The notes under the pieces are model-generated. The model searched no databases. It was not told where the DNA came from and saw nothing but the letters and a program-made list of their open reading frames with translations. The translations under genes and the position numbers were made by a program. DNA of 64,000 nucleotides from contig DYGC01000002.1 in assembly GCA_020724925.1 (NCBI GenBank), positions 2,201 to 66,200 on the forward strand. Reading direction: 5' to 3'. Of the stretch, positions 2 through 54,391 are shown piece after piece. Each line of letters starts with the position of its first letter. Positions within the stretch are counted from its first letter, which is position 1. Origin of the DNA: Candidatus Paceibacter sp. GTDB taxonomy: Bacteria; Patescibacteriota; Patescibacteriia; DYGC01.

Positions 2-2887
2 CGTTATTACGGGGCGAAAGTTATTCCGAATCGCGGGGCGTGGTTGGAAATTGAAACCGATTTGAATAATGTTATTTGGGTAAAAATTGATCGAAAGAGA
101 AAAGTTGCAGTTACTTCTTTGTTACGGGCTTTTGGAATTGCCACTGACAAAGAATTGAAAGATACTTTTGCTGATGTTAATAAGCATCCAGATATTGATT
201 ATATTCAAAATACTATTGATAAAGATGCCGCCACTAACATGGACGAAGGTTTGATGGAAATCTACAAACGTATTCGTCCGGGCGATTTTGCTACACCGGA
301 TAATGCTAAGTCTTTGATTTACGCGATGTTTTTCCGTTTTGATCGTTATGACTTGGGACGAGTCGGTCGCTATAAATTAAATGAAAGATTTGGTGATGAA
401 TTGGAAATTACTAAAGAAAATCGTGTTTTGCGTTTGGAAGACGTGGTGGGTGTGGTGAAAGAAATTATTCGTTTGAATATCACTCAAGAAGATAAGGATG
501 ATATTGATCATTTGGGAAATCGTCGTATGCGTGCTATTGGGGAATTGATTCAAAATAAATTCCGTATTGGTTTGTCTCGTATGGAGCGTATTGCTAAAGA
601 TCGTATGTCTACCATTGATCCGGAATCTTTAACTCCAGGGAAGTTAATCAATGCTCGTCCGGTGATTGCGACGGTCAAAGAATTTTTTATGTCTTCGCCG
701 TTGTCACAATTTATGGAACAGACTAATCCTTTGTCCGAATTGGAACACAAGCGTCGTATTTCCGCCATGGGGCCTGGTGGTTTGTCCCGAGAACGTGCCG
801 GCTTTGACGTGCGTGATGTGCATCCGACGCACTACGGCCGTATTTGTCCGATTGCCACGCCAGAAGGTCCGAGCATTGGTTTGGTCGGTCACTTAGCTTC
901 TTATGCGGCGATTAATGAGTATGGTTTCTTGGAAACACCTTATTATGTGGTGGAAAGAACTTTTAATGAAACCGTGAAAGAAGGAAATGAAGTTTTAGTT
1001 AAGAAAGGGGAGACTTTAACACCGGATCAAATTTGGCGTATTCAACGTCGCACCGGTGTTGATCTACGTAAATATAAATTTGATTCTAAGGTCACTAATA
1101 AAATGGTTTATTTGAATGCCGTGGCCGAAGGTCGTTATAATACTACCCCAGCTACCACCAAGATTAATAAAGATGGGAGCTTTGTCGATGAGCGTGCTCC
1201 GATGCGCGTGGTCGGCGAGCCACGCGTGGATGTGGTTAGCAAGATTGACTTTCAAGACGTCGCTTCCAATCAAATTGTGTCTATTGCCACTTCCTTGATT
1301 CCATTCATGGAACATGATGACGGGCAGCGTGCTTTGATGGGAACAAACATGCAACGTCAGGCAGTGCCAACTTTGTTACCGCAATCACCGATTGTGGGGA
1401 CTGGTATTGAAAAGAAAGTCGCTTTGGATTCCGGTTATATTATTGTTGCTGAAGAAGATGGCGTGATTAAAGAGGTGGATGCCAAACATGTTGTTTTAAA
1501 AGGTGCCAGTGGTAAATCTTACACTTATGAATTGACCAAATATCGTGGAACAAATGCCGCTACCTGTGTTACTCAAAAACCAGTGGTGGATTTGGGCGAT
1601 GAAGTTAAAAAGGGCGATGTTTTGGTTGATGGTCCAGCGATTGAAAATGGTGAATTAGCTTTAGGTCAAAATGTTTTGGTGGCCTTCTTGTCTTGGGAAG
1701 GTTGTAACTATGAAGACGCCATCGTTATTTCTGATCGTTTGATTAAAGATGATGTTTATTCATCTATTTATATTGATACTTATACGATTGAAGTGCGCGA
1801 TACTAAATTGGGACCGGAATTAATCACTTCTGATATTCCAAATATTAGCGAAGAACGTTTGAAAAATTTGGATGAAGAAGGCATTGTGCGAATTGGTGCT
1901 GAAGTCAGCTCCGGCGATATTTTAGTTGGTAAAATCACACCTAAAGGAGAAACTGAATTATCAGCGGAAGAAAAATTGTTACAGGCGATTTTCGGCGATA
2001 AGGCCAAAGATGTCCGTGATAGCTCCTTGTATTTGGAACACGGTGAACATGGTAAAGTGATTGATGTTCGTATTTTCACCCAAGAAAATGGTGATAAATT
2101 GTTGCCGGGCGTTTTGCGTATGGTGCAAGTGACGGTTGCTAATTTGAGAAAGATTGAAGTCGGTGATAAGTTGGCTGGTCGTCATGGTAACAAGGGTGTT
2201 ATCGCGAAAGTGGTGGCACAAGAAGACATGCCGTTCTTGGAAGATGGCACTCCGGTGGACATTGTTTTGTCGCCGTTGGGTGTGGCCTCTCGTATGAACT
2301 TGGGCCAGATTTTGGAAACGCATTTGGGTTTGGCCGCCAAGACTTTGGGGTACAAAGTAGCCACTCCAGTTTTGGATGGTGTCAGTGAGGAAACTATTAA
2401 AGCGGAGTTAAAGAAAGCTGGTTACCCGGAAGATGGAAAAGTGCTTGTGTATGATGGTAAAACCGGAAAAGCGTTTGATCATAAAGTGACTATCGGTTGG
2501 AAATATATGTTAAAACTGAATCACATGGTGGAAGACAAAATTCATCAACGTTCCATCGGTCCTTATTCCTTGATTACTCAACAGCCTTTGGGCGGTCGTG
2601 CTCAATCCGGTGGACAGAGATTCGGAGAAATGGAAGTTTGGGCTTTAGAAGCTTATGGTGCCGCCCATACTTTACAAGAAATTTTGACGATCAAATCCGA
2701 TGATGTGACCGGACGTTCTAAGGCTTATGAAGCCATTATTAAGAATGAAAGAATTCAACGAACCAACTTGCCGGAAGCGTTTAATGTTTTGATGCGAGAA
2801 ATGCGTGGTTTGTGTATGGATGTACAGATGATTAGTGAAGAAGATATCAATAATGAAATTGATAATAACTTTGCTCAAAACAATTAA
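2..2887 (+). CDS. rpoB: DNA-directed RNA polymerase subunit beta (N-terminus cut by window edge)
   Basis: Frame is open from base 2 (RYYGAKVIPNRGAWLEIETD precedes the first Met at 44). Hallmark beta-subunit blocks FMEHDDGQRALMGTNMQRQAVP, GRHGNKGVIAKV and QQPLGGRAQSGGQRFGEMEVWALEAYGA. rpoC follows 35 nt downstream. Confidence 0.97.
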   Translation, partial: RYYGAKVIPNRGAWLEIETDLNNVIWVKIDRKRKVAVTSLLRAFGIATDKELKDTFADVNKHPDIDYIQNTIDKDAATNMDEGLMEIYKRIRPGDFATPDNAKSLIYAMFFRFDRYDLGRVGRYKLNERFGDELEITKENRVLRLEDVVGVVKEIIRLNITQEDKDDIDHLGNRRMRAIGELIQNKFRIGLSRMERIAKDRMSTIDPESLTPGKLINARPVIATVKEFFMSSPLSQFMEQTNPLSELEHKRRISAMGPGGLSRERAGFDVRDVHPTHYGRICPIATPEGPSIGLVGHLASYAAINEYGFLETPYYVVERTFNETVKEGNEVLVKKGETLTPDQIWRIQRRTGVDLRKYKFDSKVTNKMVYLNAVAEGRYNTTPATTKINKDGSFVDERAPMRVVGEPRVDVVSKIDFQDVASNQIVSIATSLIPFMEHDDGQRALMGTNMQRQAVPTLLPQSPIVGTGIEKKVALDSGYIIVAEEDGVIKEVDAKHVVLKGASGKSYTYELTKYRGTNAATCVTQKPVVDLGDEVKKGDVLVDGPAIENGELALGQNVLVAFLSWEGCNYEDAIVISDRLIKDDVYSSIYIDTYTIEVRDTKLGPELITSDIPNISEERLKNLDEEGIVRIGAEVSSGDILVGKITPKGETELSAEEKLLQAIFGDKAKDVRDSSLYLEHGEHGKVIDVRIFTQENGDKLLPGVLRMVQVTVANLRKIEVGDKLAGRHGNKGVIAKVVAQEDMPFLEDGTPVDIVLSPLGVASRMNLGQILETHLGLAAKTLGYKVATPVLDGVSEETIKAELKKAGYPEDGKVLVYDGKTGKAFDHKVTIGWKYMLKLNHMVEDKIHQRSIGPYSLITQQPLGGRAQSGGQRFGEMEVWALEAYGAAHTLQEILTIKSDDVTGRSKAYEAIIKNERIQRTNLPEAFNVLMREMRGLCMDVQMISEEDINNEIDNNFAQNN

Positions 2888-2921
2888 ATAAAGATTTTTT
2901 AATAATTTTAAATACATAATT

Positions 2922-5900
2922 ATGGCTTCTCCTCTACAAACATTGGAATTTGAGGCGTTGAAACTCAAATTGGCCTCGCCGGAAGTGATCCGTGAATGGT
3001 CACATGGTGAAGTAACCAAACCGGAAACCATTAACTACCGCACTCAACGTCCGGAAAAAGACGGCTTGTTCTGCGAGCGCATTTTTGGACCGACTAAGGA
3101 TTGGGAATGTTATTGCGGTAAGTATAAGAAAGTAAAATATAAAGGAATTGTTTGTGATAAGTGTGGCGTCGAAGTGACTCGTTCGATTGTTCGCCGTGAA
3201 CGTATGGGGCACATTGAATTGGCTGTGCCAGTAGCCCATATTTGGTTTTTGCGTAGCGTTCCGTCCAAGATTGGTATGGTTTTGGATTTAGCCCCGCAAT
3301 CTTTGGAAAGAGTGATTTATTACGGTGGTTTTATTGTTAGTGAAGTGGATGATATGGCGAAAGCGGAATTGCTGGAACAATTGAAGAAGGAGTATCGGGC
3401 CAGCAAAAAACAAATCGAACAAGATTATCAACAACAAGTACAAAATTTGCATACTCAAGGTTTGAGTAAGACTGATTTGGAAAATGCTTTGGGGCAAGCG
3501 GAAAGTCAATATTTCTTGGAAATTAGAGAATTGGATGAAGATTATAAAGCGACTGAAAAAGAAATTGCCGACATTGTGCCAATGCAAGTTTTAAATGAAA
3601 TTGATTATCAGGCTTTATCTTTGAAGTTTGGGCATATTTTTAAGGCCGGTATTGGTGCGGAAGTGATTCATCGTTTGTTATCCAATATTAATTTGGAAGA
3701 AAAAATCGCTGAATTGAATGAAGAATTGGAAAGTGCCGGTGGTGCCAAACAAAAGAAATTGATTAAGCGCGTTAAATTATTAAAGGCTTTGCATCGTAAT
3801 AATATTCGTCCAGAATCAATGATTTTGACAGTTTTGCCGGTGATTCCTCCGGATATTCGTCCGATGGTGCCGTTGGATGGTGGACGTTTTGCCACTGCCG
3901 ACTTGAATGATTTGTATCGTCGTGTGATTAACCGTAACAACCGTTTACGAAAATTGTTAAATTTGAGTGCACCGGAAGTGATTGTTCGCAATGAAAAAAG
4001 AATGTTGCAAGAAGCAGTTGATGCTTTGTTGGATAATAGTGCTCGTCGTACTAAGACAACCGTTGCTTCTACCGGACAAAAACGTGCTTTGAAATCTTTA
4101 GCTGATATTTTGAAAGGTAAACAAGGTCGTTTCCGTCAAAACTTGTTAGGTAAACGCGTTGATTATTCCGGTCTTTCCGTAATCGTGGTTGGTCCACATT
4201 TGCGTTTGTATCAGTGTGGCGTGCCCAAGGGGATGGCTTTGGAATTATTCCGTCCGTTTATTATCAGTAAATTGATTCAACGGGAAATGGTTTATAATAT
4301 TCGTAGTGCTAATCGTTTTATTGAATCCAATCGTAGCGAAGTTTGGGATATTTTGGATGAAATCATCGCTGATGCTTATGTTTTGTTAAACCGCGCTCCG
4401 ACCCTGCATCGTTTGGGTATTCAAGCGTTCCAACCGGTTTTGGTGGAAGGTAAAGCGGTGCAGTTGCATCCATTGGTTTGTTCCGCCTTTAACGCCGACT
4501 TCGACGGTGACCAAATGGCCGTTCATGTGCCGTTAACCGAAGAAGCTCGTATTGAAGCACGGGAATTGATGTTAGCCACCAAGAATTTGTTAAAACCCGC
4601 GACCGGGGCTCCGATTTCCAGTCCGTCAATGGATATTTCTTGGGGCGTATTTTATATGACCGGTTTGGAAGCTTTGCCAGAGGGGGCGAACAAGAAAACT
4701 TATTCTTCTGTGAATGAGGCAAAAATGGCTTATAATTTAGGCCATTTGTCCTTGCGTGAGCCGATTATGGTCAAGATGAAAGCCAAAGCTAACGAAGAAG
4801 AAATGGTTTTGGAAACCAGCATGGGTAGAGTTTTCTTTAACGAAATCATGCCGGAAGAATTGCCATATTATAACGAATTGGTGGATAAGAAAAAAATCAG
4901 TGCGATTGTTTCTGAATTATTAGATCGTGCTAGTTTTGACGAAGTCGCCAAATTATTAGATCGTATCAAATACACCGGTTTTAAATATGCTACTAAGTCT
5001 GGTTATAGTTGGGGCATGGATGATATTCCGGTAATGAAGGAAAAATATAGTTTGATTGATGAAGCCATTAAAGAAGCTGATTTAGTGGAAAGCCAATATG
5101 ATATGGGTTTGTTAACCAAGGATGAAAAACATTCACAAATCGTTTCTATTTGGGCTGGTGTGAAAGATCGTGTTTCCAAGATGTCTCAAGAAATTTTGGA
5201 TAAGGATGGTTCTGTTTACAGCATGATTATTTCCGGTTCTCGTGGGTCTTGGGGGCAGTTAGCCCAGATGGCCGGTATGAAAGGTTTGGTGAGTAATCCA
5301 TCCGGCGACATTATTGAGTTGCCGATTATTTCCAACTTTAAGGAGGGTTTAACCGTGTTGGAATATTTCATTTCTACTCATGGTACTCGTAAAGGTTTGT
5401 CCGATACGGCGTTACGTACCGCCAGTGCTGGTTATTTGACTCGTCGTTTGGTTGATGTTTCTCAAGATATTATTATTTTGGATGATGATTGTCATGATGA
5501 TGAAGGTTTTGTGATTACTAAAGAAGATAGCGAAACTATTGGGACAACCGTGGTGGCACGTTTGCAAGGTCGTTGGATTTTGGATGATATTAAGGATCCG
5601 CAGACCGGAAAGCTTTTGGTTAAAGGGGATACTTTCATGACTAAGGAATTGGTCCAATCTCTAAAAGATGTTGATTTGGAATCAGCACGCATTCGCTCGG
5701 TGATGACTTGTAAGTTACGTCGAGGGGTTTGTTCCAAGTGTTATGGTTCTGATTTGACCAAACATCAACCGGTTGAATTGGGTACAGCGGTTGGTATTAT
5801 GGCCGCACAATCCATCGGTGAACCAGGAACGCAGTTGACTATGAGAACTTTCCACTCCGGTGGTGTGGCCGGCTCCGACATTACTCAGGGTTTGCCTCGT

Positions 5901-43862: not shown

Positions 43863-46859
43863 ATGGCATCAATTTTTAAAAACAGTAAAATCAAAGAGAA
43901 TTTGGAAAGATTTGAAGTGCCTGATTTGAAGGATAAAATTAAGTTGGTTAAAGAGTGGTATGATTATTATCACAAAGGCACTTTAAAGCAAGAAAAAGAG
44001 ATCAGTGTAGCACCTCGCTACAGTCAGTTTTTGATTGATTTGTTGGGATATAAAGGCAAACCGGCGGATGGCTATACTTTGGAAAGCGAACCAACAACCG
44101 AAGATAAAGGCGGCCAACGCCCTGATCTTTTATTGGGATATTTAAGTGGTGAGGATCGTAATATTTCAGCTGTGGTAGAACTTAAGGGCGCTGGGATTGC
44201 TTTGGACCGTCCGCAACAACGCGAAGGCAATATGAGTCCGATTCAGCAAGCTTTTAAATACAAAACGCAATATTCCAGTTGTCCCTTTGTGATTGCTTCC
44301 AATTTTTATGAAATTCGTTTGTTTCAAGACAATCAATTGGATTATGAAATTTGGAATTTGGATGATTTGGTTAATCCGGAAGATAATTATTTTCAGTTTC
44401 GTAAATTTTATTATTTACTTTGCGCGGATAATTTTGTGGCCAAGGGTGGTAAAAGTAAAACCGAGGAATTGTTAAGTGATATTAGAGTGGAAGCGGAGAG
44501 TATCAGTAAAAAGTTTTATAAAGAATATCATGAATTGAGAACCAATCTTTTACGTTCTTTGTATAAAGAAAATGAAAGTGTTCGTAGCAATATTGATTTT
44601 GGCATTGAAAAAGCTCAGAAAATTGTGGATAGAGTGGTTTTTGTGTGTTTTTGTGAAGATACCGGACTTTTGCCGGAGCATACTCTAAAACGAGTTTTGG
44701 AAAAATCCAAAGATAGTTTCGGGTCTTTGTGGAATAATTTACAAGGATTTTTTGAGGAAATTGACAGTGGCAGTGAAAAATTGGAAATCCCCAAAGGCTA
44801 TAATGGCGGTTTGTTTGCTCAGGATACGGATTTAATGGCTTTGAAAGTGAAAGATGATGTTTTGAGTAAACTTTTGGATTTGGGGAAATATGATTTTTCC
44901 GAAGATTTAACGGTTAATATTTTGGGGCATATTTTTGAACAATCAATTTCTGATTTGGAGGAAATTAAGCAGAAAGTGCAAAAGGATACGACGGTTAAAA
45001 GTAAACGTAAAAAAGATGGTATTTTTTATACGCCGGATTATATTGTGGATTATATTGTAAAAAATTCTTTGGGTAAGTATTTGGAAGAAAAAGAAGAACA
45101 ATTGAAAAATGAATACAAATTGAAAGGTGATATTTCCGATAAGACCTATGCCAAGCGTGAACGTGAAGCCTATGAAAAATACCAAAAGTTTTTACAGGAA
45201 GTCAGAGTTTTGGATCCGGCCTGCGGTTCCGGGGCGTTTTTGGTAAAAGTGTTTGATTATTTATTGGCGGAAAATCAACGCGTTGGTGCGATTTTGGGTA
45301 ATTTGTTCGGGACTGATGCTTATAATAAGCACATTCTAAAGAATAATATTTACGGAGTTGATTTGAATCAGGAGTCAGTGGAAATTACCAAGCTTTCTTT
45401 GTGGTTAAAAACCGCACAAAAGAATAAAAAGTTGACAGCTCTGGATGATAACATCAAATGCGGTAATAGCTTGATTGATGATCCGGCGGTGGCAGGAGAT
45501 AAGGCATTCAATTGGAATGCAGAATTTAAAGAAATAATGGATCAGGGGGGATTTGATGTGATTGTGGGGAATCCGCCGTATGTGAACATTGCTAATATAC
45601 CAAATAAGATAGAAAGGCAATATTATCAAAATAATTATAAAACAGTTAAAAATAAAAGCGATCTTTATAGTATCTTTTTAGAAAAGGCTACATACTTATT
45701 AAAACCAAATGGTTTATTGAATTTTATTTTTTCTAATTCTTGGCTGGGAACTGATAGTTTTAGTGAGTTTAGAAAGTTTCTTGTTGAAGAAAAATCTGTT
45801 TTGAGTTTGGTGAAATTACCACCTGGTGTATTTGAGGATGCTGTTGTGACAGCGGTTATTATATTGCTTTGCAATTCTATTCCAAAAGGAAATCATAAAG
45901 TTAATTTATTTGAATATAATGTGAATAAGATTGAAAAAATGAAACATAGTTTAAGTTATGAAAGGATTAAGAGTACAATAAATTATACTTTTTCCTTTGA
46001 GCCAGCGATTTGTTTTAAGACAGAAACTGTAAAATTGGGCGATATTGTGGAATTTTCATTAGGGATAAAAACAAGTGATGATAAACGTTTTATTTTAGAT
46101 TATAGAAAAGATGAGAATTGTTATCCCGTATTACGAGGAAAAGACATTTTTCGATATTATGTAGGAAAACCTAAAAAATATATTTGGTACCAGCCAAAGT
46201 TAATGATGGAAAAGGTTGGTGCGGGACCAAGGTGTTTGGAGGATTTTTTGAAACCTAAAATCTTCGTTCAAGATGTTGCCCAGAAAATAATTGCTTGTTT
46301 CGATGAGCATAAATATTTATCAACAGATACATTGTCGTTGGTTTATAATGTCGATAAAAAATTTAATTTAAAATATATTTTGGCATTATTGAATTCCCAT
46401 TTCGTAAATAAATGGTTCAAAAACAATTTCCCAGAAGGATTACATATAAAAATAAATCAATTAAAACAAATTCCAATTCCAAATATACCAACCGAACAGC
46501 AGGAAGTATTTGCTTTTAGATCTGATTTGATTACAAATGCGTCGGAAGAACTGCAAAATAAATTAAGTAAATTTTCTAGTCGTCTGCAATCAAGCTTCAA
46601 TTTGGCAAAAATATCTAATAAATTGGAAAATTTTTACGAATTGGATTTTGTTGATTTTATTAAAGAGCTAAAAAAGCAAAAAGTTGAAATATCCTTAAAA
46701 GATCAGGACGAATGGGAAGATTATTTCAATCAATATAAAAAGGAAATTTTAGATTTGAAATCTCAAATCGATAAAACCGACAAAGAAATTGATCAAATGG
46801 TTTACGCTTTATATAATTTAACGGATAAGGAGATCGGCGTGGTTGAGGGGGGATATTAA
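43863..46859 (+). CDS. Type IIG restriction-modification enzyme (fused PD-(D/E)xK nuclease, N6-adenine methyltransferase and target-recognition domain)
   Basis: N-terminal RPDLLLGY...AVVELKGAG...QQAFKY (D...ExK plus QxxxY nuclease motifs). MTase motif I VLDPACGSGAFLV and motif IV VIVGNPPYV. A C-terminal ~380 aa TRD-like region with a coiled tail. Confidence 0.85.
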   Translation: MASIFKNSKIKENLERFEVPDLKDKIKLVKEWYDYYHKGTLKQEKEISVAPRYSQFLIDLLGYKGKPADGYTLESEPTTEDKGGQRPDLLLGYLSGEDRNISAVVELKGAGIALDRPQQREGNMSPIQQAFKYKTQYSSCPFVIASNFYEIRLFQDNQLDYEIWNLDDLVNPEDNYFQFRKFYYLLCADNFVAKGGKSKTEELLSDIRVEAESISKKFYKEYHELRTNLLRSLYKENESVRSNIDFGIEKAQKIVDRVVFVCFCEDTGLLPEHTLKRVLEKSKDSFGSLWNNLQGFFEEIDSGSEKLEIPKGYNGGLFAQDTDLMALKVKDDVLSKLLDLGKYDFSEDLTVNILGHIFEQSISDLEEIKQKVQKDTTVKSKRKKDGIFYTPDYIVDYIVKNSLGKYLEEKEEQLKNEYKLKGDISDKTYAKREREAYEKYQKFLQEVRVLDPACGSGAFLVKVFDYLLAENQRVGAILGNLFGTDAYNKHILKNNIYGVDLNQESVEITKLSLWLKTAQKNKKLTALDDNIKCGNSLIDDPAVAGDKAFNWNAEFKEIMDQGGFDVIVGNPPYVNIANIPNKIERQYYQNNYKTVKNKSDLYSIFLEKATYLLKPNGLLNFIFSNSWLGTDSFSEFRKFLVEEKSVLSLVKLPPGVFEDAVVTAVIILLCNSIPKGNHKVNLFEYNVNKIEKMKHSLSYERIKSTINYTFSFEPAICFKTETVKLGDIVEFSLGIKTSDDKRFILDYRKDENCYPVLRGKDIFRYYVGKPKKYIWYQPKLMMEKVGAGPRCLEDFLKPKIFVQDVAQKIIACFDEHKYLSTDTLSLVYNVDKKFNLKYILALLNSHFVNKWFKNNFPEGLHIKINQLKQIPIPNIPTEQQEVFAFRSDLITNASEELQNKLSKFSSRLQSSFNLAKISNKLENFYELDFVDFIKELKKQKVEISLKDQDEWEDYFNQYKKEILDLKSQIDKTDKEIDQMVYALYNLTDKEIGVVEGGY

Positions 46860-46875
46860 GAAATAAAGAAAAAGT

Positions 46876-47592
46876 ATGGTTGAGTTATATGATTTATTAA
46901 TAGAAATAAGCGACGCCGCTGATAAGTTATTGAAAGAACAATCTCCGCCTCAAAAGGAGAAAGAAGCTTTGCTTTTATTTGCAATTGGTAAAACAGAGAA
47001 AACTTCTAAGGCAATTTCGTTTTTATGCCAAAGAGGTTTTGGACAAGATGCAGCGATGCTAAGTCGCAGTTTGTTTGAGTTAGCGTTAACAGTAGATTAT
47101 ATAATGTCTGACAAAAGTGGTTATTTAGTAAAAAGATTTTTTGCCTATGATTGGATTCAACGTAAAGAAATGTATGATTATTTAAAAAATTATGATAACC
47201 AATATAAAAATATAAAGAAAGAGGCGGAAATTGCTCAAAAAAAATATAAATATAATAAATATAGGGGGTGGTCTAAGATTAGTATTTCTAGAATGGCTGA
47301 AAAATGCGGTTGGGGGAATATGTATAAAACTATTTATAAAATATTATGTGCATTTACTCATGCTAATACAAGATCTTTTAATGATTATTTAAAAATGGAT
47401 GAAGCGAATAATTTTTTAGTTGATTCTGGCCCCAATACAAGTTTAATTGATGAAACATTAGTTTTGTCAGCATATAGTTATTTACAGGTATTGTATTATT
47501 TTGATAGTTATTTTAATAAAGATTATAAAAGTTATTTGAAGAAAATAGAAGAAAAAATAATAGAAATATGTTCAATAAAAGGATTGAATTAA
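46876..47592 (+). CDS. hypothetical protein, DUF5677-like (tentative)
   Basis: All-helical. GQDAAMLSRSLFELALTVDYI and ILCAFTHAN blocks resemble DUF5677 family members as I remember them. Starts 16 nt after the RM stop. Confidence 0.45.
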   Translation: MVELYDLLIEISDAADKLLKEQSPPQKEKEALLLFAIGKTEKTSKAISFLCQRGFGQDAAMLSRSLFELALTVDYIMSDKSGYLVKRFFAYDWIQRKEMYDYLKNYDNQYKNIKKEAEIAQKKYKYNKYRGWSKISISRMAEKCGWGNMYKTIYKILCAFTHANTRSFNDYLKMDEANNFLVDSGPNTSLIDETLVLSAYSYLQVLYYFDSYFNKDYKSYLKKIEEKIIEICSIKGLN

Positions 47593-47611
47593 ATAATAAA
47601 TATAATTTATT

Positions 47612-49081
47612 ATGAGTGACGAATTGCAACCGGTTAATGGAGAAGAATTTAAAATAGATATAAATAATTTGGCTTCTATTTTCAAAAAACACATTACCAT
47701 AGAAAATAATAATAAAATATTATTTTCCGGGAAGTTTGGAATAGGTAAGACATATTTCCTGAATAAGTTTTTTGAAACTGAAAATAATGAATATGAAGTT
47801 TTTCATTTGTATCCTGTGAATTATCAAATTTTTTCCAATGAAGATATAATAGAATTTTTAAAATATGATATTTTGGTTGAATTATTAAAAAATCATAAGG
47901 ATATTTTTAATCAAAATGATTATTCTAGTATGATAGATTATGAACAGTTATTATATTTATGGGGGAAAGAAAATGTGACAAATATTATAAAAAAAGCGTC
48001 CTCTTATTTTGGAAAGTTGGGGCGACCGTTAAATGATATTATTGTATTGGTAGAAGGTTTTTTAGAATTTAAAAGAAAAATGGAATTAGGGGATTTAGGT
48101 ATAGTAAATGATTTCTTAGATGATATAAAGAAGAGGAAAGTTCTAGAGACTGATTTAATTAGTGACTTAATAAAAAGCAAATTACAAGAAATAAAAAATG
48201 GTAAAAATGTTGTATTGATTTTAGATGATTTGGAGAGAATGGATCCGGAGCATATTTTTAGAATTTTAAATGTTTTTTCTGCTTGTGCAGATAAAGACGG
48301 TAAAAACAAATTTGGTTTTGATAAAATTATATTGGTGGCTGATTACAATAATTTAAAAAGTATATTCCATCATAGATATGGTGAGGGTACGGATTCTTGT
48401 GGTTATTTCGACAAGTTCTTTAGTATTGAGGTCTTTGAGTTTACAAATAATAATGTGGTAATTAATATGGTGGATGATATTATTTCCAAATTCATTATAT
48501 GGGATAAAAGAAAAAATTTGAAAACTGATTCTGATATAGGGATATTACGTTTTATTTTGTCTGACTTTCTTATTAATGGCATTAGTCTTTCAGGAAAGGA
48601 TCAAATCAATTTGAGGCAGTTGTTAAAAGGTATTAAATTTTCGCTTGGATATAAGTTTAATGAGGATATTTTAAATCGTGTATCCTTTCATACTTTGATA
48701 ACTCTACAATATATTAATTTTAGTATATTTATATTAATATCAATTGCTGGCGGACAAAAAAAAGAGTTATTGGTATTATTGGAAAAAATTAAGCAGTATT
48801 TAGTTCATAAAAATAAACTTATTAAAAACCTTGGCGTTCACAGACAAGCAGCAAATTTGTTGTTGCAGGGGGTGTTAGGTAGAGATGCCTTAACTGAATT
48901 TTTTGATAAAAACTGGAATAATTATAATATAAAAGGGAAAAATGGATATATAGAAAGTGTTGTTTACGGTAATGGTAACGGCAAGGATAATGGTAAAACT
49001 CTTGAGGCTCGATTGTATTATGATTTGCTAATTGAATATGTAGAAAATGATTATTATTTAAAAAATAATAATTATAATTAG
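47612..49081 (+). CDS. KAP family P-loop NTPase
   Basis: Walker A FSGKFGIGKTYFLNKFF, Walker B VVLILDDLERMDPEHIFRILNVF, then a hydrophobic insert (LITLQYINFSIFILISIAGG) as in KAP NTPases. Starts 19 nt after the previous gene. Confidence 0.8.
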   Translation: MSDELQPVNGEEFKIDINNLASIFKKHITIENNNKILFSGKFGIGKTYFLNKFFETENNEYEVFHLYPVNYQIFSNEDIIEFLKYDILVELLKNHKDIFNQNDYSSMIDYEQLLYLWGKENVTNIIKKASSYFGKLGRPLNDIIVLVEGFLEFKRKMELGDLGIVNDFLDDIKKRKVLETDLISDLIKSKLQEIKNGKNVVLILDDLERMDPEHIFRILNVFSACADKDGKNKFGFDKIILVADYNNLKSIFHHRYGEGTDSCGYFDKFFSIEVFEFTNNNVVINMVDDIISKFIIWDKRKNLKTDSDIGILRFILSDFLINGISLSGKDQINLRQLLKGIKFSLGYKFNEDILNRVSFHTLITLQYINFSIFILISIAGGQKKELLVLLEKIKQYLVHKNKLIKNLGVHRQAANLLLQGVLGRDALTEFFDKNWNNYNIKGKNGYIESVVYGNGNGKDNGKTLEARLYYDLLIEYVENDYYLKNNNYN

Positions 49082-49082
49082 T

Positions 49083-49118
49083 AAAAAAAAAGAACAGTAA
49101 TTAAACTGTTCTTTTTTT
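49083..49118. terminator. bidirectional hairpin terminator between convergent genes
   Basis: AAAAAAAA-AGAACAGT-AATTAA-ACTGTTCT-TTTTTT. Serves the KAP operon (+) and the 49131-49343 gene (-). Confidence 0.7.
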
Positions 49119-49130
49119 ACTGTTATGTTT

Positions 49131-49343
49131 TTATTGTTTGTGACATGGTTTACAACAATAGTAACATCCATCAGCGGTATTGTATCCTCTTTCTTTTGCT
49201 TTACTAATTGCATCATAGCAATTAGCGAATTTTCCTAAATAAATAGCATTGGGCGATAATGGAAGATGTCCACAATCAGATTTGTGAACTTCGTGATCGC
49301 CATTAGGTTGAGGATTTATATTTATATAATAATCAAATAACAT
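49131..49343 (-). CDS. small Cys/His-rich protein (putative metal-binding), unknown function
   Basis: 70 aa: GDHEVHKSDCGHLP ... CYDAISKAKERGYNTADGCYYCCKPCH. Recalls a widespread family of small proteins of unknown function with the HEVH..C.....C..C..CH pattern. Confidence 0.55.
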   Translation of the reverse strand: MLFDYYININPQPNGDHEVHKSDCGHLPLSPNAIYLGKFANCYDAISKAKERGYNTADGCYYCCKPCHKQ

Positions 49344-49636
49344 TTGTTTTTGGTTATTTTTTTTAATTTGACTTCCCCTAATTCCGTAAATGTGCTATTA
49401 TATTTTTATCAAGAAAAACAATAGTACATTTCTAACTCGACCTTTAATGTTAGTCGGAGTTAGAGGCAAAAATATGGTTAAAAACCATAATTTTTGTTTT
49501 TCGTCTTTTGTATTATATCATGATATGTAGTATTTAACAAGTGGCGGCTAGCGCAACATCTAGTGTTTCGGCGTGGCGTTTAAAACATTTTTTGTGTTAT
49601 AATAATATTAATATAATTATTAAAATCAAATTTTTT

Positions 49637-50185
49637 ATGGAAACCCTCAAACTCATCCTTTCTCTCTGGCCGGTTTATTTATTTTTGATTATTTTTGTTA
49701 TTGGTAAATTGGCTTTGGATTATTTTTTCAAAGACAATAAAAAAGAACACAATCTTTCCGGTTATGAAAAGAAAACGCATTTATTTGATACAAGTACAGA
49801 ATTTAATTTATATAAAATATTGCTTGAACTTTTTGGCGAGCAATATTTTATTTTTCCCCAGATAAATTACAGTCATCTTATTAAAGTTAAAAGTGCCGAA
49901 TGGAAAGAATCCCAAGCATATCGTAGTCGTATTGATCGAAAATCCGCTGATTTTGTGCTTTGTGATAAAGCTCAAATCTTGCCTTTGTTGGTGATTGAAC
50001 TTGATGGTAGCGCGCATAATATTCAAAAGAAACAAGATCGAGATCAATTTATTGATGAATTGTTGAATCAGATTAATTTGTCAATTTTACATTTAAAAAA
50101 CGATGATCTAGATCGTGAATTTGTTAAAAATGAAATTTTGAAAAAATTGGGTAATAACGAAACTGTTATATCTAATCAAACTTAA
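49637..50185 (+). CDS. DUF2726 domain protein (PD-(D/E)xK-like) with N-terminal TM anchor
   Basis: METLKLILSLWPVYLFLIIFVIG (TM), then RIDRKSADFVLCDKAQILPLLVIELDGSAHN...KQDRDQFIDELLNQINLSILHL, the DUF2726 D...ExD/K core. Track start 49541 is GTG; ATG at 49637. Confidence 0.7.
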   Translation: METLKLILSLWPVYLFLIIFVIGKLALDYFFKDNKKEHNLSGYEKKTHLFDTSTEFNLYKILLELFGEQYFIFPQINYSHLIKVKSAEWKESQAYRSRIDRKSADFVLCDKAQILPLLVIELDGSAHNIQKKQDRDQFIDELLNQINLSILHLKNDDLDREFVKNEILKKLGNNETVISNQT

Positions 50186-50196
50186 CACCACCCCCT

Positions 50197-50499
50197 ATGC
50201 CCGCCCCCCACGTTCCTACCGGTTCCAAGGTTCAGGCCCCGGCCGACCAACAGAAAAATATTGCTCATGATTTTGATTTGGAAGAAGCGTCCCTAGATGC
50301 CGGTATGGACGATGAGTCAGCATTGTTAGCGGATCCGTTTCCCTTGTCCGGGTATCATCCCGATAACGCCCGGGCGCAGGAATTGATGAACGATTATGAT
50401 TTGGACGCGGACGCCGCCGCGCGCGTCAGTGATTTGATGGATGAATATGATCTTGATCCGGATTCGGCTATTGCGATGGATGATGCAGACGGGAATTGA
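50197..50499 (+). CDS. acidic Asp-rich protein with internal 16-aa duplication, unknown function
   Basis: ELMNDYDLDADAAARV / DLMDEYDLDPDSAIAM tandem units. Visibly G+C-richer than its neighbours. C-rich leader TTAACACCACCCCCTATG shared with the gene at 51886. Confidence 0.45.
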   Translation: MPAPHVPTGSKVQAPADQQKNIAHDFDLEEASLDAGMDDESALLADPFPLSGYHPDNARAQELMNDYDLDADAAARVSDLMDEYDLDPDSAIAMDDADGN

Positions 50500-50515
50500 T
50501 AAGTCTGTGGATAGC

Positions 50516-50598
50516 GGTGTAATGGGGGATCGTGAAAAGGTGCAATGGGTTATCGTGAAAAGGTGTAATGGGTCATCCTGAAACAAGTTCAGGATGAC
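50516..50598. repeat. three 23-nt tandem repeats ending in a GTCATCCTGAA hairpin
   Basis: GGTGTAATGGGGGATCGTGAAAA (50516-50538), GGTGCAATGGGTTATCGTGAAAA (50539-50561), GGTGTAATGGGTCATCCTGAAAC (50562-50584). The last unit forms GTCATCCTGAA-ACAA-TTCAGGATGAC (50572-50598). Confidence 0.8.
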
Positions 50599-50612
50599 TT
50601 AATTCTACAACC

Positions 50613-50667
50613 CCTGTGGATAACTCGCGAAAACTTTACGTTAATTTAACGTTCGATTTGCTATAAT
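50613..50667 (+). promoter_or_regulatory. 55-nt promoter module with DnaA-box-like 9-mer (copy 2 of 3)
   Basis: CCTGTGGATAACTCGCGAAAACTTTACG...TGCTATAAT. TGTGGATAA at 50615-50623. 46 nt from block start to TGCTATAAT (50659). Confidence 0.65.
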
Positions 50668-50686
50668 AACGTTAATTATTTTTATC

Positions 50687-50714
50687 GTAGGGGCGTATGG
50701 CTATACGCCCCTAC
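50687..50714 (+). repeat. GTAGGGGCG-family hairpin inside the predicted 5' UTR of the Bro-N gene
   Basis: GTAGGGGCGTAT-GGCT-ATACGCCCCTAC. Lies between the -10 element (50662-50667) and the ATG at 50750. Confidence 0.75.
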
Positions 50715-50749
50715 CACAAAATATTAATTTAAAAAAATAACAATAATTT

Positions 50750-51559
50750 ATGGATGCCAAATCCCTATCCTTTTTTAATGGTGCCAAAATTCGTCGTGTT
50801 TGGGACGAGAAAAAACAAAAGTGGTATTTTTCGGTGGTAGATGTGGTTGGGGTTTTGACGGATAGTGTTAGATGCCGGAAGTACTGGAGTGATTTAAAGG
50901 TGAAATTAGCAGAGGAAGGTTTTCAGTTGTCCGAAAAAATCGGACAACTGAAATTTATGGCTAATGATGGTAAATATTACACTGGTGATGCGGCTGATGT
51001 AGAAACCTTATTGCGTTTGATTCAATCAATTCCTTCTAAAAAAGCCGAACCATTTAAATTATGGTTGGCCAAAGTCGGTCGAGAAAGATTAGAAGAAATG
51101 GCTGATCCGGAAAAAGCAATCATTCGTAGTCAGGAGTATTGGCGGAAAATGGGACGAAGTGAGAAGTGGATTAAAAGAAGATTGGGCGGGCAGGAAGTGC
51201 GTAACAAATTAACCGAATATTGGCGAACGCATGAGGTTGATGAAGGCAAAGATTTTGCTTTATTGAGTAATATTATTCACAAAGAATGGTCGGATTTAAC
51301 AATCACTGAACATAAAGAGTTGAAAAACTTGGATAAACAAAATTTGCGTGATCACATGTCAGAAGTGGAACTGTTTTTTACGGCGTTTGCGGAAATGGCC
51401 ACCGAACAAATTGCTGAAAGTATGGATGCGACAGGGCTGGAAGAGAACAAAATCCCTGCCAAGCAAGGTGGTGCAATTGCCAAACATGCGCGTTGCGAGC
51501 TGGAAGAGAAAACCAAAAAATCAGTGATTAGTGGGAAGAATTTTTTGAGGAAAATTTAG
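50750..51559 (+). CDS. Bro-N domain protein (DinD / phage antirepressor-like)
   Basis: KIRRVWDEKKQKWYFSVVDVVGVLTDS...RKYWSDLKVKL, LLRLIQSIPSKKAEPFKLWLAKVGRERLEEMADPE and the C-terminal KQGGAIAKHARCELEEKTKKSVIS match the common Bro-N/DinD-like family architecture. Confidence 0.72.
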   Translation: MDAKSLSFFNGAKIRRVWDEKKQKWYFSVVDVVGVLTDSVRCRKYWSDLKVKLAEEGFQLSEKIGQLKFMANDGKYYTGDAADVETLLRLIQSIPSKKAEPFKLWLAKVGRERLEEMADPEKAIIRSQEYWRKMGRSEKWIKRRLGGQEVRNKLTEYWRTHEVDEGKDFALLSNIIHKEWSDLTITEHKELKNLDKQNLRDHMSEVELFFTAFAEMATEQIAESMDATGLEENKIPAKQGGAIAKHARCELEEKTKKSVISGKNFLRKI

Positions 51560-51770: not shown

Positions 51771-51860
51771 ATACCGTGAATTTGCTCGTTTTTTCACCCA
51801 AATTCACGGTATTTTGATGTTTTGGCGTGAATTTTTCCAATTTTCTGCTATAATTCACCT
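51771..51860 (+). promoter_or_regulatory. operator-like inverted repeats overlapping a TGCTATAAT promoter
   Basis: Perfect 14-bp inverted repeat ATACCGTGAATTTG (51771-51784) / CAAATTCACGGTAT (51799-51812). A second pair of the same half-site, GTGAATT (51827-51833) / AATTCAC (51853-51859), brackets TGCTATAAT (51846-51854). Confidence 0.6.
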
Positions 51861-51885
51861 GAGCTTATCATTAACCCCAACCCCT

Positions 51886-52614
51886 ATGTCCCGCTCTAAA
51901 CTTTACACGCCCGGTCAAAGTGAGCCTTTCAAACTCAGTCGCAGTAAACTGGAATTGTTTGTCCAATGTCCGCGTTGTTTTTATTTGGATCGGCGTTTGG
52001 GTGTCGGGCGCGTGTCCGGTCCGGCTTTCACTTTGAACAGTGCCGTTGATCATCTTTTGAAAAAAGAATTTGATATTCATCGCGTTGCGAAAACTCGTCA
52101 TCCTTTATTGGAGCAATACGGGATTGATGCTTGGCCGGTGGCCCATCCGGATCTGGATGTTTGGCGCGAAAATTTTACAGGTTTGCAATATGTGCATACT
52201 GAGACCAACTTATTGATTTTCGGCGCGATTGATGACTTGTGGATAAATCCGGCCGGTGAATATATTGTCGTGGATTATAAAGCAACTTCCAAACAAGGAC
52301 GGATTTTATCTTTGGATGATAGTTCTTGGCAGGCCGGTTATCGTCGGCAAATGGAGATTTACCAGTGGATTTTGCGGAATAATGGTTATTCGGTTTCATC
52401 CACCGGTTATTTTGTTTATTGCAATGGTCAAAAAGATCGCGAAGCCTTTGATGGTAAATTGGAATTTGAGGTCACGGTTTTCCCTTACGACGGCGATGAT
52501 TCCTGGGTGGAGCAGTGCGTCCGCGACGCCCACGCTTGTCTCAATTTAACAACGCCCCCGCCCGCCGCCCCGGAATGTGAGCATTGTGAGTATGTGAGGC
52601 GGGCGTCGGTTTAG
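51886..52614 (+). CDS. PD-(D/E)xK nuclease family protein, Cas4/RecB-like with Cys cluster
   Basis: SRSKLELFVQCPRCFYLDR (N-terminal Cys), FGAIDDLWINPAGEYIVVDYKAT (D...D-x-K core), QMEIYQWIL, C-terminal C...ECEHCEY. The ATG at 51886 follows the promoter; the track start 51814 lies upstream of the -10. Confidence 0.75.
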   Translation: MSRSKLYTPGQSEPFKLSRSKLELFVQCPRCFYLDRRLGVGRVSGPAFTLNSAVDHLLKKEFDIHRVAKTRHPLLEQYGIDAWPVAHPDLDVWRENFTGLQYVHTETNLLIFGAIDDLWINPAGEYIVVDYKATSKQGRILSLDDSSWQAGYRRQMEIYQWILRNNGYSVSSTGYFVYCNGQKDREAFDGKLEFEVTVFPYDGDDSWVEQCVRDAHACLNLTTPPPAAPECEHCEYVRRASV

Positions 52615-52617
52615 GTG

Positions 52618-52672
52618 CCTGTGGATAACTCGCGAAAAGTTTATGCTAGATTTATGGTCAGTGTGCTATAAT
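52618..52672 (+). promoter_or_regulatory. 55-nt promoter module with DnaA-box-like 9-mer (copy 3 of 3)
   Basis: CCTGTGGATAACTCGCGAAAAGTTTATG...TGCTATAAT. TGTGGATAA at 52620-52628. 46 nt to TGCTATAAT (52664). Confidence 0.65.
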
Positions 52673-52890
52673 TGTTTTGAACTTTGATTCGTCTGTGAGT
52701 CCTTCCGCGAGAGCGCTTTAGCGCGAAGCGGTTGTAGGGATAGACTATGATTTTAGTGTCACAGTCCATCAGTTTTTTCAGTGTAATCCCGGTTCAAGAC
52801 TTTTATTGTCCAAAAACCTAACACCACCTTGTTTGACTTTCAGACATTGTTTTGTTACAATTTTTGTACTTAAATCTTATTCCCAAAGTT

Positions 52891-53574
52891 ATGCGTCAAC
52901 CATATTTTCAATTGATTAAAGAATTGCGCTTGCAAAAAAATCTTTCCCAAGCGGAAATCGCCAAGCGAATTGGTGTTTCTCGTCAAGCTTATTTAAGCTT
53001 TGAACAAGGAAAAACCGAATTTAATTTATCGGAAATGATTAAAATCGCGGATATTTTGGGAATTTCCCTGGATGAAATCAAGCACGGCGTCAAGCCGGAC
53101 TATGCCAAATACAAACAAATGATTTTAGCTTTTTTGCGCAGTAATCCGAACGTTAAAATCACTAAAACGAAATTGGCGAAATTGTTGTATTTGGCTGATT
53201 TCGCCTGGTTTTATAATAATTTGCAAAGCATGAGCGGCATGGCTTATCGTAAAATTCAATACGGACCGGTGCCGGATAGCTATTTTCGTGCTTTGGATGA
53301 ACTTTTTGAAGCCGGTTCCATTGACATTGATAACACCAGTCGGGATGGTGTTTTTTTAATTTCCGAAACCGTGACCGGTGCTCGGGAAAAACTTACGTCC
53401 TTAAATGAAAGTGAATATTCTTTGATCAAAAAAATCGCCAAGAAATGGCACAATAAACGGACGCAGGAAATCGTAAAATTCACTCATGATCAATTGCCTT
53501 ATTCTTTGTGTGATGAGAATGAAATCATTCCGTATAGTTTAATCACTCAGGAAGATCCGGAAAATGTCTATTAA
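52891..53574 (+). CDS. XRE-family HTH fused to Panacea (DUF4065, SocA-like) domain: PanA-type antitoxin candidate
   Basis: HTH LSQAEIAKRIGVSRQAYLSFEQG, then LAKLLYLADFAWFY...YRKIQYGPVPDSY, characteristic of DUF4065. ATG at 52891; the track TTG at 52852 is less likely. Confidence 0.78.
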   Translation: MRQPYFQLIKELRLQKNLSQAEIAKRIGVSRQAYLSFEQGKTEFNLSEMIKIADILGISLDEIKHGVKPDYAKYKQMILAFLRSNPNVKITKTKLAKLLYLADFAWFYNNLQSMSGMAYRKIQYGPVPDSYFRALDELFEAGSIDIDNTSRDGVFLISETVTGAREKLTSLNESEYSLIKKIAKKWHNKRTQEIVKFTHDQLPYSLCDENEIIPYSLITQEDPENVY

Positions 53575-53959
53575 ACATTCGGTTAGTCTGGAAACCTTTG
53601 CCGAGCGGCATTACTCGAAAAGTTTTGCGAAAAAATATGGCCGGGCTTGGGATATAACCATTGAGGCGGTTTTGTGGGAGCTGCAAGATTTTGATTTGTT
53701 GTTAACTCGTTCAATCGCCGAGATTATTATCGCGAAAGATAAGATTAAAATTTGCAAAGTGGAATTTAAAGTCGCCGGCACGCCGTATTCGCGCCACGCT
53801 TCCGGAAATCGTTGTATCGTGGCTTGGCATCAAGATTGCGCTTTGGTAAAAATTTTATTGATTTATCATAAAAATGATTTATCGTCCAAAAACGAAACCG
53901 CCGCTTGGAAAAATTTGATTAAAGAAAATTATTTGGAATACCGCGATTTGATAAAGTGA
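53564..53959 (+). CDS. candidate toxin partner, RelE/HigB(Gp49)-like C-terminal pattern (tentative)
   Basis: Overlaps the antitoxin gene by 11 nt (ATG inside ...GAAAATGTCTATTAA). KVEFKVAGTPYSRHASGNRCIVAWHQDCALVKILLIYHKNDLSSKNETAAWKNLIKE resembles the beta-sheet core plus the ...ILL.YHK... tail of RelE-superfamily toxins. Confidence 0.5.
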   Translation: MSIKHSVSLETFAERHYSKSFAKKYGRAWDITIEAVLWELQDFDLLLTRSIAEIIIAKDKIKICKVEFKVAGTPYSRHASGNRCIVAWHQDCALVKILLIYHKNDLSSKNETAAWKNLIKENYLEYRDLIK

Positions 53960-54136
53960 TTGTTTATATCGAGCTTTTTTTAATAAAAAAAGAGGATGAG
54001 CAGCCCATCCTCGGAAAGGGGAATTTGCGGGAATCCGCGGAAAAACTCGTTAAGCTGCTATCCTGAGGCTGGATTTAACGAGTGAGAAAAGTGAGTGGAT
54101 GTTTTAATCATATCGAGTGCTAGTGATTTGTCAATT

Positions 54137-54175
54137 AAAAAAACCACGTGACCGATTGGCCACGTGGTTTTTTAT
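54137..54175. terminator. bidirectional hairpin terminator
   Basis: AAAAAAA-CCACGTGACC-GATT-GGCCACGTGG-TTTTTT between convergent genes (53959 + and 54185 -). Confidence 0.7.
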
Positions 54176-54184
54176 TTGTGAAAT

Positions 54185-54391
54185 TTATTTTCTGGCAAAT
54201 TTTGGTAACATTAACAACATGTAAATGGCGGATAAACCAACCAAGCCATAAACGATGCGAGCGATTAAGCTCATTGGGCCAAATAGATAAGCGACTAAGT
54301 CAAATTCCAAGCCGCCAACTAAGCCCCAATTTAAACCACCAATTGACAATAAGATGATGGCAATCCAATCTGCCGCATTTAAAGTTTTCAT
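54185..54391 (-). CDS. DUF378 domain membrane protein
   Basis: IAIILLSIGGLNWGLVGGLEFDLVAYLFGPMSLIARIVYGLVGLSAIY is the DUF378 signature (GxLNWGLVG...DLV). 68 aa. Confidence 0.78.
   Translation of the reverse strand: MKTLNAADWIAIILLSIGGLNWGLVGGLEFDLVAYLFGPMSLIARIVYGLVGLSAIYMLLMLPKFARK

Follow-up and report, generated by a model that had tools for sequence, protein, structure and literature searches.

A Panacea-type toxin–antitoxin gene pair with a predicted HigB-2/RelE-like toxin in Candidatus Paceibacter

The stretch of DNA analysed here, a 64,000-nucleotide window of contig DYGC01000002.1 from a Candidatus Paceibacter genome (GCA_020724925.1), carries two overlapping genes on the same strand, panA and panT (Table 1). 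PanA joins an XRE-type helix-turn-helix (HTH) to a Panacea domain, and PanT is a small protein that lies outside the curated protein families. We consider it quite probable that the two genes at 52891-53959 constitute a genuine and intact PanA/PanT toxin-antitoxin (TA) pair of type II, in which PanT is an mRNA-cleaving toxin (mRNase) of the HigB-2/RelE type, and which is autoregulated, translationally coupled and neutralised by direct binding. An earlier, sequence-only reading of this DNA had already proposed a PanA/PanT pair here. Both open reading frames (ORFs) lie where that reading placed them, with the 11-nt overlap between the ATG at 53564 and the stop at 53574, and all the peptide strings it cited were found in them.

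The panA/panT pair and its conservation across genomes

In the N-terminal part of PanA, Pfam HTH_3 covers residues 9-63 (61.5 bits against a cut-off of 23; E = 7.9e-17), and residues 95-203 match SocA_Panacea (PF13274; E = 1.1e-13) over profile positions 1-111 of 113, with 52.5 bits against a Pfam gathering cut-off of 25.7. The protein is thereby placed above the score by which Pfam defines Panacea-domain proteins, and its description as a PanA-type fusion of an XRE HTH and a Panacea domain holds. NCBIfam and PADLOC recognised only generic HTH-type models in PanA, the NCBIfam model SocA_antitoxin scoring 20 bits against a cut-off of 190. The AlphaFold2 model made from the single PanA sequence was poor, with a predicted local distance difference test score (pLDDT) of 48.6, and was confident only in the HTH. 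Beyond the end of the Pfam domain, the last 24 residues were conserved like the domains themselves in an alignment of 80 homologues (mean 0.71), and this C-terminal tail is a candidate neutralising element.

The panT start codon is embedded in the last four codons of panA (GAA AAT GTC TAT TAA). This overlap fixes residues 3 and 4 of PanT, as the Tyr codon of PanA, TAT or TAC, dictates Ile3 or Thr3, and the panA stop codons TAA, TAG and TGA dictate K/N, S/R and D/E, respectively, at residue 4. Overlapping gene architecture is typical of TA modules. The overlap itself can be read directly, and it is likely the site at which translation of panT is coupled to that of panA. A conserved Shine-Dalgarno sequence for panT within panA was sought and rejected: as it is present in only 21 of the 52 loci with the -11 overlap, coupling through the overlap is likelier than initiation at an internal ribosome-binding site. 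We also discarded a TTG start at 52852, which would lengthen panA, as its position is upstream of the -10 box and homologues lend it no support.

The distribution of the pair was surveyed in one genome per GTDB species, in which 170 loci were found and 80 kept; 78 of these have upstream DNA, and the remaining two begin at the edge of a contig. In every one of the 78 loci, a full-length HTH-Panacea homologue (224-258 aa; E = 1e-73 to 1e-108) lies immediately 5' of panT on the same strand. Those first flagged as unpaired proved to be artefacts of the ORF caller, which had extended the toxin ORF upstream, and PanA ends at the expected place in each of them. Orphan toxins were not seen in the 78 loci with upstream DNA. 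The spacing between the genes is -11 in 52 of the 80 loci (confirmed by a direct check of the ATG), -14 in about ten and +2 or +3 in six. This association at 78 of 78 informative species loci, amid flanking genes that vary by locus, agrees with the pairing criteria for PanAT of Kurata et al. (2022). Thus, the pairing of PanT homologues with Panacea genes elsewhere, which the sequence-only reading had named as a check, was borne out, and the downstream gene appears as a conserved partner of PanA in these loci and in three more distant ones.

These three loci (L086, L087 and L088) carry PanT relatives of ~30% identity, all of which are paired with Panacea proteins. The partner is a 234-aa HTH-PanA in L086 and a 230-aa HTH-PanA, with an 11-nt overlap, in L088. 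In L087 (positions 2523-3432), a 143-aa PanT relative overlaps by 20 nt a 165-aa PanA that has the Panacea domain without an HTH. With a PanA made up of the Panacea domain alone, L087 demonstrates that the partnership of PanA and PanT does not require the HTH.

Two further observations bear on the pair. Pairwise identities of PanA and of PanT are correlated (r = 0.70), a value not reached in any of 999 Mantel permutations. In addition, a split panT stands next to an intact panA in two loci (L028:2944-3393 and L067:3001-3399), and the reverse was never seen in the 80 loci. Both cases look like decay of the toxin with retention of the antitoxin, the asymmetry expected of a TA pair.

Many of the GTDB records in which this module of Patescibacteria type occurs bear the title 'uncultured Gammaproteobacteria', 'Candidatus Saccharibacteria' or 'Pacearchaeota archaeon' (L009, L012-L014, L017, L019, L020 and others). 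As such record titles are probably placeholder or mis-assigned labels, taxon counts taken from them are unreliable.

Predicted fold and putative active site of PanT

PanT belongs to a large family, with at least 675 clusters at 90% identity (214 at 50% identity in an exhaustive hidden Markov model search), whose members are nearly all 130-131 aa long, lack Pfam annotation and come mostly from Patescibacteria-type metagenome-assembled genomes (MAGs). Searches of PanT against the Pfam, NCBIfam, PHROG and PADLOC models gave no meaningful match, and neither PanT itself (phmmer) nor a profile of 47 close homologues matched any PDB sequence at E <= 10. No Pfam family recurred among these 47 homologues or among 104 diverse representatives of the family, all of which were scanned. 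Foldseek comparison with viral structures likewise returned nothing meaningful.

The structure predicted for PanT was more informative. An AlphaFold2 model built on the 47 homologues (pLDDT 90.7; predicted template-modelling score 0.85) has the topology b1-a1-a2-a3-b2-b3-b4-b5-a-a, with N-terminal helices packed on an antiparallel beta-sheet and a C-terminal helix, as in the RelE/ParE superfamily (BECR fold). When this model was compared with the PDB by Foldseek, ranks 1-27 were all occupied by toxins of this superfamily. The best match was HigB-2 of Vibrio cholerae (8a0x_D; E = 5.6e-4, probability 1.0), and the archaeal RelE (aRelE; 1wmi_A) gave a target-normalised template-modelling (TM) score of 0.71. 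Other leading matches were the RelE proteins of Thermus thermophilus, Escherichia coli and Mycobacterium tuberculosis (RelBE1 and RelBE2), followed by HigB of E. coli and Shigella, YoeB and PfiT.

Sequence comparison pointed to the same protein. When the 177,635 distinct PDB sequences were all queried with a profile of the 104 diverse representatives, HigB-2 entries alone fell below E = 0.5 (E = 0.009), in an alignment that pairs SGNRCI...LLVYxKND of the family with GGSRII...LLTIYGKNE of HigB-2. In pairwise comparison with a HigB-2 sequence identical to PDB 5JA9_C, BLASTP gave E = 4e-5 over 83 residues, and hhalign against a shallow HigB-2 family alignment gave E = 2.9e-5. HigB-2 itself belongs to Pfam PF06296. 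PanT does not match this model, which appeared only below threshold in one of the 47 close homologues (E = 0.051) and in one of the 104 representatives (E = 0.014). Since PF06296 is below threshold in all 151 members scanned, PanT is outside this family as Pfam defines it; it is a relative of PF06296 beyond the reach of the current model.

The residues required by HigB-2 are known from Hadzi et al. (PMC5416850), in which alanine substitution of R51, R64, Y82 or K84 reduced activity 170- to 3000-fold. The BLASTP alignment sets these residues opposite K65, R83, Y101 and K103 of PanT, and its register agrees with the predicted strands: strand b3 of the model (residues 61-67) corresponds to b2 of HigB-2, and the loop at residues 68-81 corresponds to the disordered basic loop at 53-63. 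All four putative catalytic residues are invariant in 77 of 77 relatives from the genome loci and at least 90% conserved over the 50%-identity representatives. The predicted PanT active site is therefore of the basic/Tyr composition found in ribosome-dependent mRNases of the HigB-2/RelE type. E111, T112 and W115 are invariant as well and are without a described counterpart in HigB-2.

The predicted structure, the profile search and the conservation of the putative catalytic residues together allow PanT to be placed in the HigB-2 (PF06296-like) branch of the RelE/ParE superfamily. The same three lines of evidence back the RelE/HigB-like look that had been noticed in the C-terminal half of the protein.

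Promoter region, mobility and neighbourhood

The promoter scan located a sigma-70-type promoter 30 nt 5' of the panA ATG (TTGACT-17-TACAAT with a TG motif; 10 of 12 matches), accompanied by two operator-like repeats, sites A and B (Table 1). When the 130 nt 5' of panA were aligned in 79 loci, the pattern of site A (TGTC-N8-11-NACA) was present in 69 loci, as compared with 6.5% of shuffled sequences, and the pattern of site B overlapping the -35 box (TTGAC-N4-6-NACA) in 58 loci, as compared with 2.5%; the two followed each other in order in 42 loci, as compared with 0.01% of shuffles. These patterns were defined post hoc, and their enrichment is indicative. PanA thus combines a DNA-binding domain (HTH_3) with repeats at its own promoter in 42-69 of the 79 loci (at most 6.5% of shuffles), as expected of a type II TA module. 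The conserved repeats, as read from the sequence, would fit HTH-mediated autorepression, and the panAT module is very likely autoregulated. In most of the loci L001-L084, 34-38 nt separate the -35 box from the ATG of panA, so that their panAT mRNAs would be leaderless; this distance is 58 nt in the window copy, which would leave a leader of ~22 nt.

Table 1. Features of the panAT locus (positions are those of the window unless a locus is named)
Feature	Position	Strand	Remarks
Repeated promoter-like element	52617..52675	+	TGTGGATAA then TGCTATAAT; copies at 50613-50667 and L085:1224-1282
Operator-like site A (TGTCCAAAAACCTAACA)	52807..52823	+	Imperfect inverted repeat of the type TGTCAA-N-TTRACA; candidate site for the PanA HTH
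panAT promoter, sigma-70 type	52833..52861	+	-35 TTGACT (52833-52838), 17-nt spacer, TG-extended -10 TACAAT (52856-52861)
Operator-like site B (TTGACTTTCAGACA)	52833-52846	+	Second operator-like repeat, overlapping the -35 box
panA	52891..53574	+	227 aa from ATG
PanA XRE HTH	residues 9-63, nt 52915-53079	+	Pfam HTH_3
PanA Panacea domain	residues 95-203, nt 53173-53499	+	Pfam PF13274; a linker separates it from the HTH
PanA conserved C-terminal tail	residues 204-227, nt 53500-53571	+	Alignment of 80 homologues
panA/panT 11-nt overlap (ATGTCTATTAA)	53564..53574	+	Sequence reading
panT	53564..53959	+	131 aa
PanT putative catalytic K65	53756-53758	+	BLASTP against HigB-2
PanT putative catalytic R83	53810-53812	+	BLASTP against HigB-2
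PanT putative catalytic Y101	53864-53866	+	BLASTP against HigB-2
PanT putative catalytic K103	53870-53872	+	BLASTP against HigB-2
Hairpin with an A-run on one side and a T-run on the other	54137..54175	.	7-bp CCACGTG/CACGTGG stem; 178 nt after the panT stop

The sequence-only reading had instead given the pair its own promoter module at 52618-52672. A conserved element of ~55 bp does exist at this position (CCTGTGGATAACTCGCGAAAAGTTTA...TGCTATAAT, with TGcTATAAT), but it is not specific to the pair: it precedes different genes in different genomes, its second copy in the window lies upstream of a Bro-N gene, and the copy in the related locus L085 is found downstream of panT. As the element is repeated elsewhere and stands 3' of panT in L085, we rejected it as the module's own promoter in favour of the family-conserved promoter/operator region at 52807-52861. 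Read-through transcription of panAT from the element is possible. A GC-rich hairpin follows the element in both window copies, and TGTGGATAA is a perfect DnaA-box-like sequence that occurs six times in the window, where 0.9 occurrences are expected.

Downstream of panT, the hairpin and T-run proposed earlier as a terminator stand up on a reading of the sequence, and a self-complementary BLAST match spans 54138-54173. This structure, which may possibly act as a bidirectional terminator shared with a convergent DUF378 gene (54391-54185), was missed by the terminator scan, its loop being longer than 8 nt. Rfam at gathering thresholds found nothing in the whole window, and a permissive Rfam search of 52600-54250 gave only sub-threshold matches driven by terminators.

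A unit resembling a small RNA (sRNA) gene was also noticed on the minus strand (54134-53982), between panT and the bidirectional terminator. It comprises a promoter-like TTGACA-16-TATGAT (11 of 12 matches; 54134..54107) and a strong intrinsic terminator with a T-run (54012..53992). For the sRNA-like transcript of ~125 nt, folding gave z = -3.6; no Rfam family matches it, and the other loci lack a copy.

The closest relative of the pair is that in L085, which encodes a PanT of 98% identity and is 95.8% identical at the nucleotide level over 52771-53959. The homology ends precisely at the panT stop codon, and the genes downstream differ, those of L085 encoding a PsbP-like protein, a prepilin peptidase and pilins. 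This near-identical copy in a different neighbourhood is the evidence that the panAT module is mobile.

The region 5' of panAT in the window (43863-51559) looks like a defence island. It encodes a type IIG restriction-modification (RM) enzyme (43863-46859; E = 5.5e-133), DUF5677, KAP NTPase and DUF2726 proteins, together with a Bro-N protein that matched PDC-S13, a defence candidate of PADLOC (E = 6e-113); the KAP NTPase gene lies in a low-GC stretch (24-28% GC) at about 47000-49500. The Bro-N gene recurs near panAT in L017, L034 and L043. RM or defence genes flank the pair in L001, L003 and L086 as well, and not in L085, L087 or L088.

Just 5' of panAT there is also a gene for a Cas4-like PD-(D/E)XK nuclease (51814-52614). 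Five other genomes have very close homologues of the nuclease (E = 1e-91 to 1e-110) no more than 3 kb from panAT, at L001:7043-7813, L020:5466-6212, L021:217-978, L025:3408-4160 and L070:4851-5606; the gene begins 15 nt after panT in L025. With only these five loci and variable positions, an obligate three-gene system including the nuclease was rejected. It may be that the nuclease gene is an accessory found with panAT on occasion, or that it marks a shared insertion neighbourhood.

Proposed mechanism and comparison with known systems

We envisage the following scheme. Both genes would be transcribed from the promoter upstream of panA, and PanA, probably as a dimer, would bind through its XRE HTH the repeats beside and across the -35 box (52807-52846), repressing the operon. 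Translation of panT would be coupled to that of panA through the 11-nt overlap. From its fold, the alignment with HigB-2 and the conservation of its residues, we infer that PanT is an endoribonuclease of the HigB-2/RelE type, which most probably enters the A site of the ribosome and cuts the mRNA under translation by means of K65, R83, Y101 and K103. PanA would bind PanT directly via the Panacea domain and/or the 24-residue C-terminal tail; the HTH is an unlikely binding part, as the 165-aa PanA of a distant family member has none. If PanA were lost, or switched by some cue, free PanT would arrest translation. As to the role of the module, stabilisation of the island and/or a defence of the abortive-infection type may be speculated.

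Several points weigh against this scheme. The similarity of PanT to HigB-2 is weak, with 23% identity and a probability of just 74% in hhalign. Query-normalised TM-scores are modest (0.44-0.50), in part because PanT has an extra strand and extra helices. Of the 151 family members scanned, none matched any Pfam model above threshold. The partner of R51 of HigB-2 is K65 in the BLASTP alignment but K69 in that of hhalign, which makes the equivalence of K65 and R51 less certain than the others. The enrichment of the operator-like repeats, their patterns having been chosen after the fact, is no clean test of autoregulation. Toxicity and RNase activity are predicted, as are neutralisation and the formation of a complex. 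Moreover, Kurata et al. (2022, PMC8832971) found eight predicted PanTs to be non-toxic in E. coli, and one PanA that gave no rescue from its MqsR-type PanT.

Alternative explanations differ in how much of the scheme they would change. The one that fares best concerns the role alone and overlaps our explanation: the module may serve primarily in anti-phage abortive infection, the Panacea domain sensing a phage cue and freeing the mRNase, rather than as a selfish addiction element or island stabiliser. A sensor function of Panacea has been put forward (PMC10440598), and the pair stands among RM or candidate defence genes in the window, L001, L003 and L086, but copies in L085, L087 and L088 adjoin pilin, dehydrogenase or molybdopterin genes, and PADLOC offers no model for PanT and only generic HTH models for PanA. 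We thus regard a primary role in abortive infection as possible, with the odds against it. Still more tentative, and rather unlikely in our judgement, is the generalisation that the HTH-Panacea/HigB-2-like pair is a widespread Patescibacteria defence module, an abortive-infection system of the sensor-effector type, in which Panacea senses infection and releases a ribosome-dependent mRNase in ultra-small episymbionts. On this reading, given the invariant E111, T112 and W115 and the extra beta-strand, the toxin subfamily might also have a codon or target specificity of its own.

PanT may, alternatively, put the RelE/ParE fold to another use, as a ParE-like poison of DNA gyrase or a ribosome-independent nuclease, the rest of the module remaining unchanged. 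RelE and ParE share one fold and act on different targets (PMC10440598; PMC11980606), the ParE-like PfiT (9w3a) is among the Foldseek matches, and the invariant E111, T112 and W115 have no equivalent among the catalytic residues of HigB-2. We nevertheless find this improbable, as the best matches in both structure and sequence are the mRNases HigB-2, RelE and YoeB, not ParE, and all four catalytic positions of HigB-2 are kept and invariant in PanT. Marginally less probable again is that the pair does not arrest growth at all and the 131-aa protein is a non-toxic partner of an XRE regulator, such as a co-repressor or a degenerate RelE-fold protein: the eight non-toxic PanTs and the failure of every curated family model to recognise PanT speak for it, but the catalytic tetrad is strictly conserved (77 of 77), panT was never found without PanA in the loci with upstream DNA, two loci combine a broken toxin with an intact antitoxin, and the overlapping arrangement of the genes is typical of TA modules.

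With this assignment, a 'hypothetical protein' outside all curated models becomes a testable toxin of the RelE/HigB-2 type with four named putative catalytic residues, and one that is the obligate partner of a Panacea antitoxin across hundreds of uncultured Patescibacteria lineages. What the present analysis adds is the assignment of the PanT fold and active site, an obligate pairing over about 80 species, and a map of the promoter and operator. The family would provide a clean case for how Panacea proteins neutralise a RelE-fold toxin, by the Panacea domain itself or by the conserved tail. Annotation of candidate-phyla genomes would also gain from a Pfam or NCBIfam model of the PanT family.

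Among characterised toxins, HigB-2 of the V. cholerae HigBA2 system (PDB 5JA8, 5JA9, 8A0X; PF06296) is the best match to PanT in both structure and sequence. Besides the tetrad R51/R64/Y82/K84, equivalent to K65/R83/Y101/K103, the two proteins share a basic beta2-beta3 loop and a C-terminal helix; PanT, however, exceeds HigB-2 by 20 residues and has an additional strand (52-58) and additional helices. The operons differ as well: HigBA2 is toxin-first, and in HigA2, which lacks a Panacea domain, neutralisation falls to a disordered N-terminal segment and the HTH is C-terminal. E. coli RelBE and the archaeal aRelE-aRelB share with the window pair the toxin fold (1wmi_A, 4fxh, 2khe), the antitoxin-first order and, very probably, the character of an autoregulated type II TA system. 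In contrast, RelB, unrelated to PanA, is of the ribbon-helix-helix kind and neutralises through a C-terminal helix, and the catalytic Y87 of RelE is on helix alpha3, whereas the corresponding Tyr of PanT and HigB-2 is on the last strand.

On the antitoxin side, the founding Panacea (DUF4065) system, SocAB of Caulobacter, likewise has a Panacea-domain antitoxin, but SocA works as a proteolytic adaptor (type VI), its target being the replication inhibitor SocB. The MqsR:PanA pair of B. fungorum has a PanA that bears both Panacea and HTH and a partner that is an RNase of the wider RelE-like group; its PanA neutralises the toxin via a zinc-binding domain (ZBD), which is absent from the window PanA. 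More generally, Panacea domains can neutralise the toxin directly or host other neutralising elements (Phd-C, PAD1 and ZBD), and a sensor role has been proposed for them (Ernits et al. 2023, PMC10440598).

The closest precedent is found in the survey of Kurata et al. (2022; PMC8832971), which defined PanA and PanT with 88 toxin clusters and 343 HTH-bearing PanAs, the PanAT pairs being mostly antitoxin-first and forming direct complexes. Its cluster T14 (pT15) was matched by HHpred to HigB-2 (99.73%), and all members, WP_067091868.1 among them, are listed in Dataset S1 as 'hypothetical protein' and 'notest'. T14 pairs with HTH-PanA in antitoxin-toxin order and -11 spacing come from Ca. Saccharimonas aalborgensis (WP_128569608.1/WP_015641600.1) and TM7 HOT_356 (WP_129619246.1/WP_129619247.1); others with HTH-PanA are from Cryosericum (-8) and from Pedobacter and Flexibacter (+2 and +6), and Methanobacteria have a PanA without the N-terminal domain. 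The window pair has in common with T14 the HTH-PanA, the antitoxin-first order, the -11 spacing, the taxon group and the assignment to HigB-2, and its family also includes +2 spacings, like those of the Bacteroidetes members of T14, and one MAG labelled as Bacteroidia (L037). It differs in that the window copy is from another, uncultured Patescibacteria-type genome, and in that the family is far larger in metagenomes than the few RefSeq entries of T14. A search seeded with the divergent member P0212, together with cluster look-ups, returned no named RefSeq entries. Judging from architecture, taxon and fold instead of a direct sequence comparison, we hold it highly probable that the PanT family of the window is T14.

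The supposition that the toxin is unassigned and may represent a new PanT class is therefore not upheld, as a HigB-2-like assignment could be made and T14 already unites an HTH-PanA with a HigB-2-like PanT. Clusters T28, T58 and T59 are RelE/ParE-like as well (PMC8832971), so that the combination of a Panacea antitoxin with a RelE-fold toxin was a known class. The window pair accordingly introduces no new kind of system: it is a new member of a pairing predicted and catalogued by Kurata et al. in 2022.

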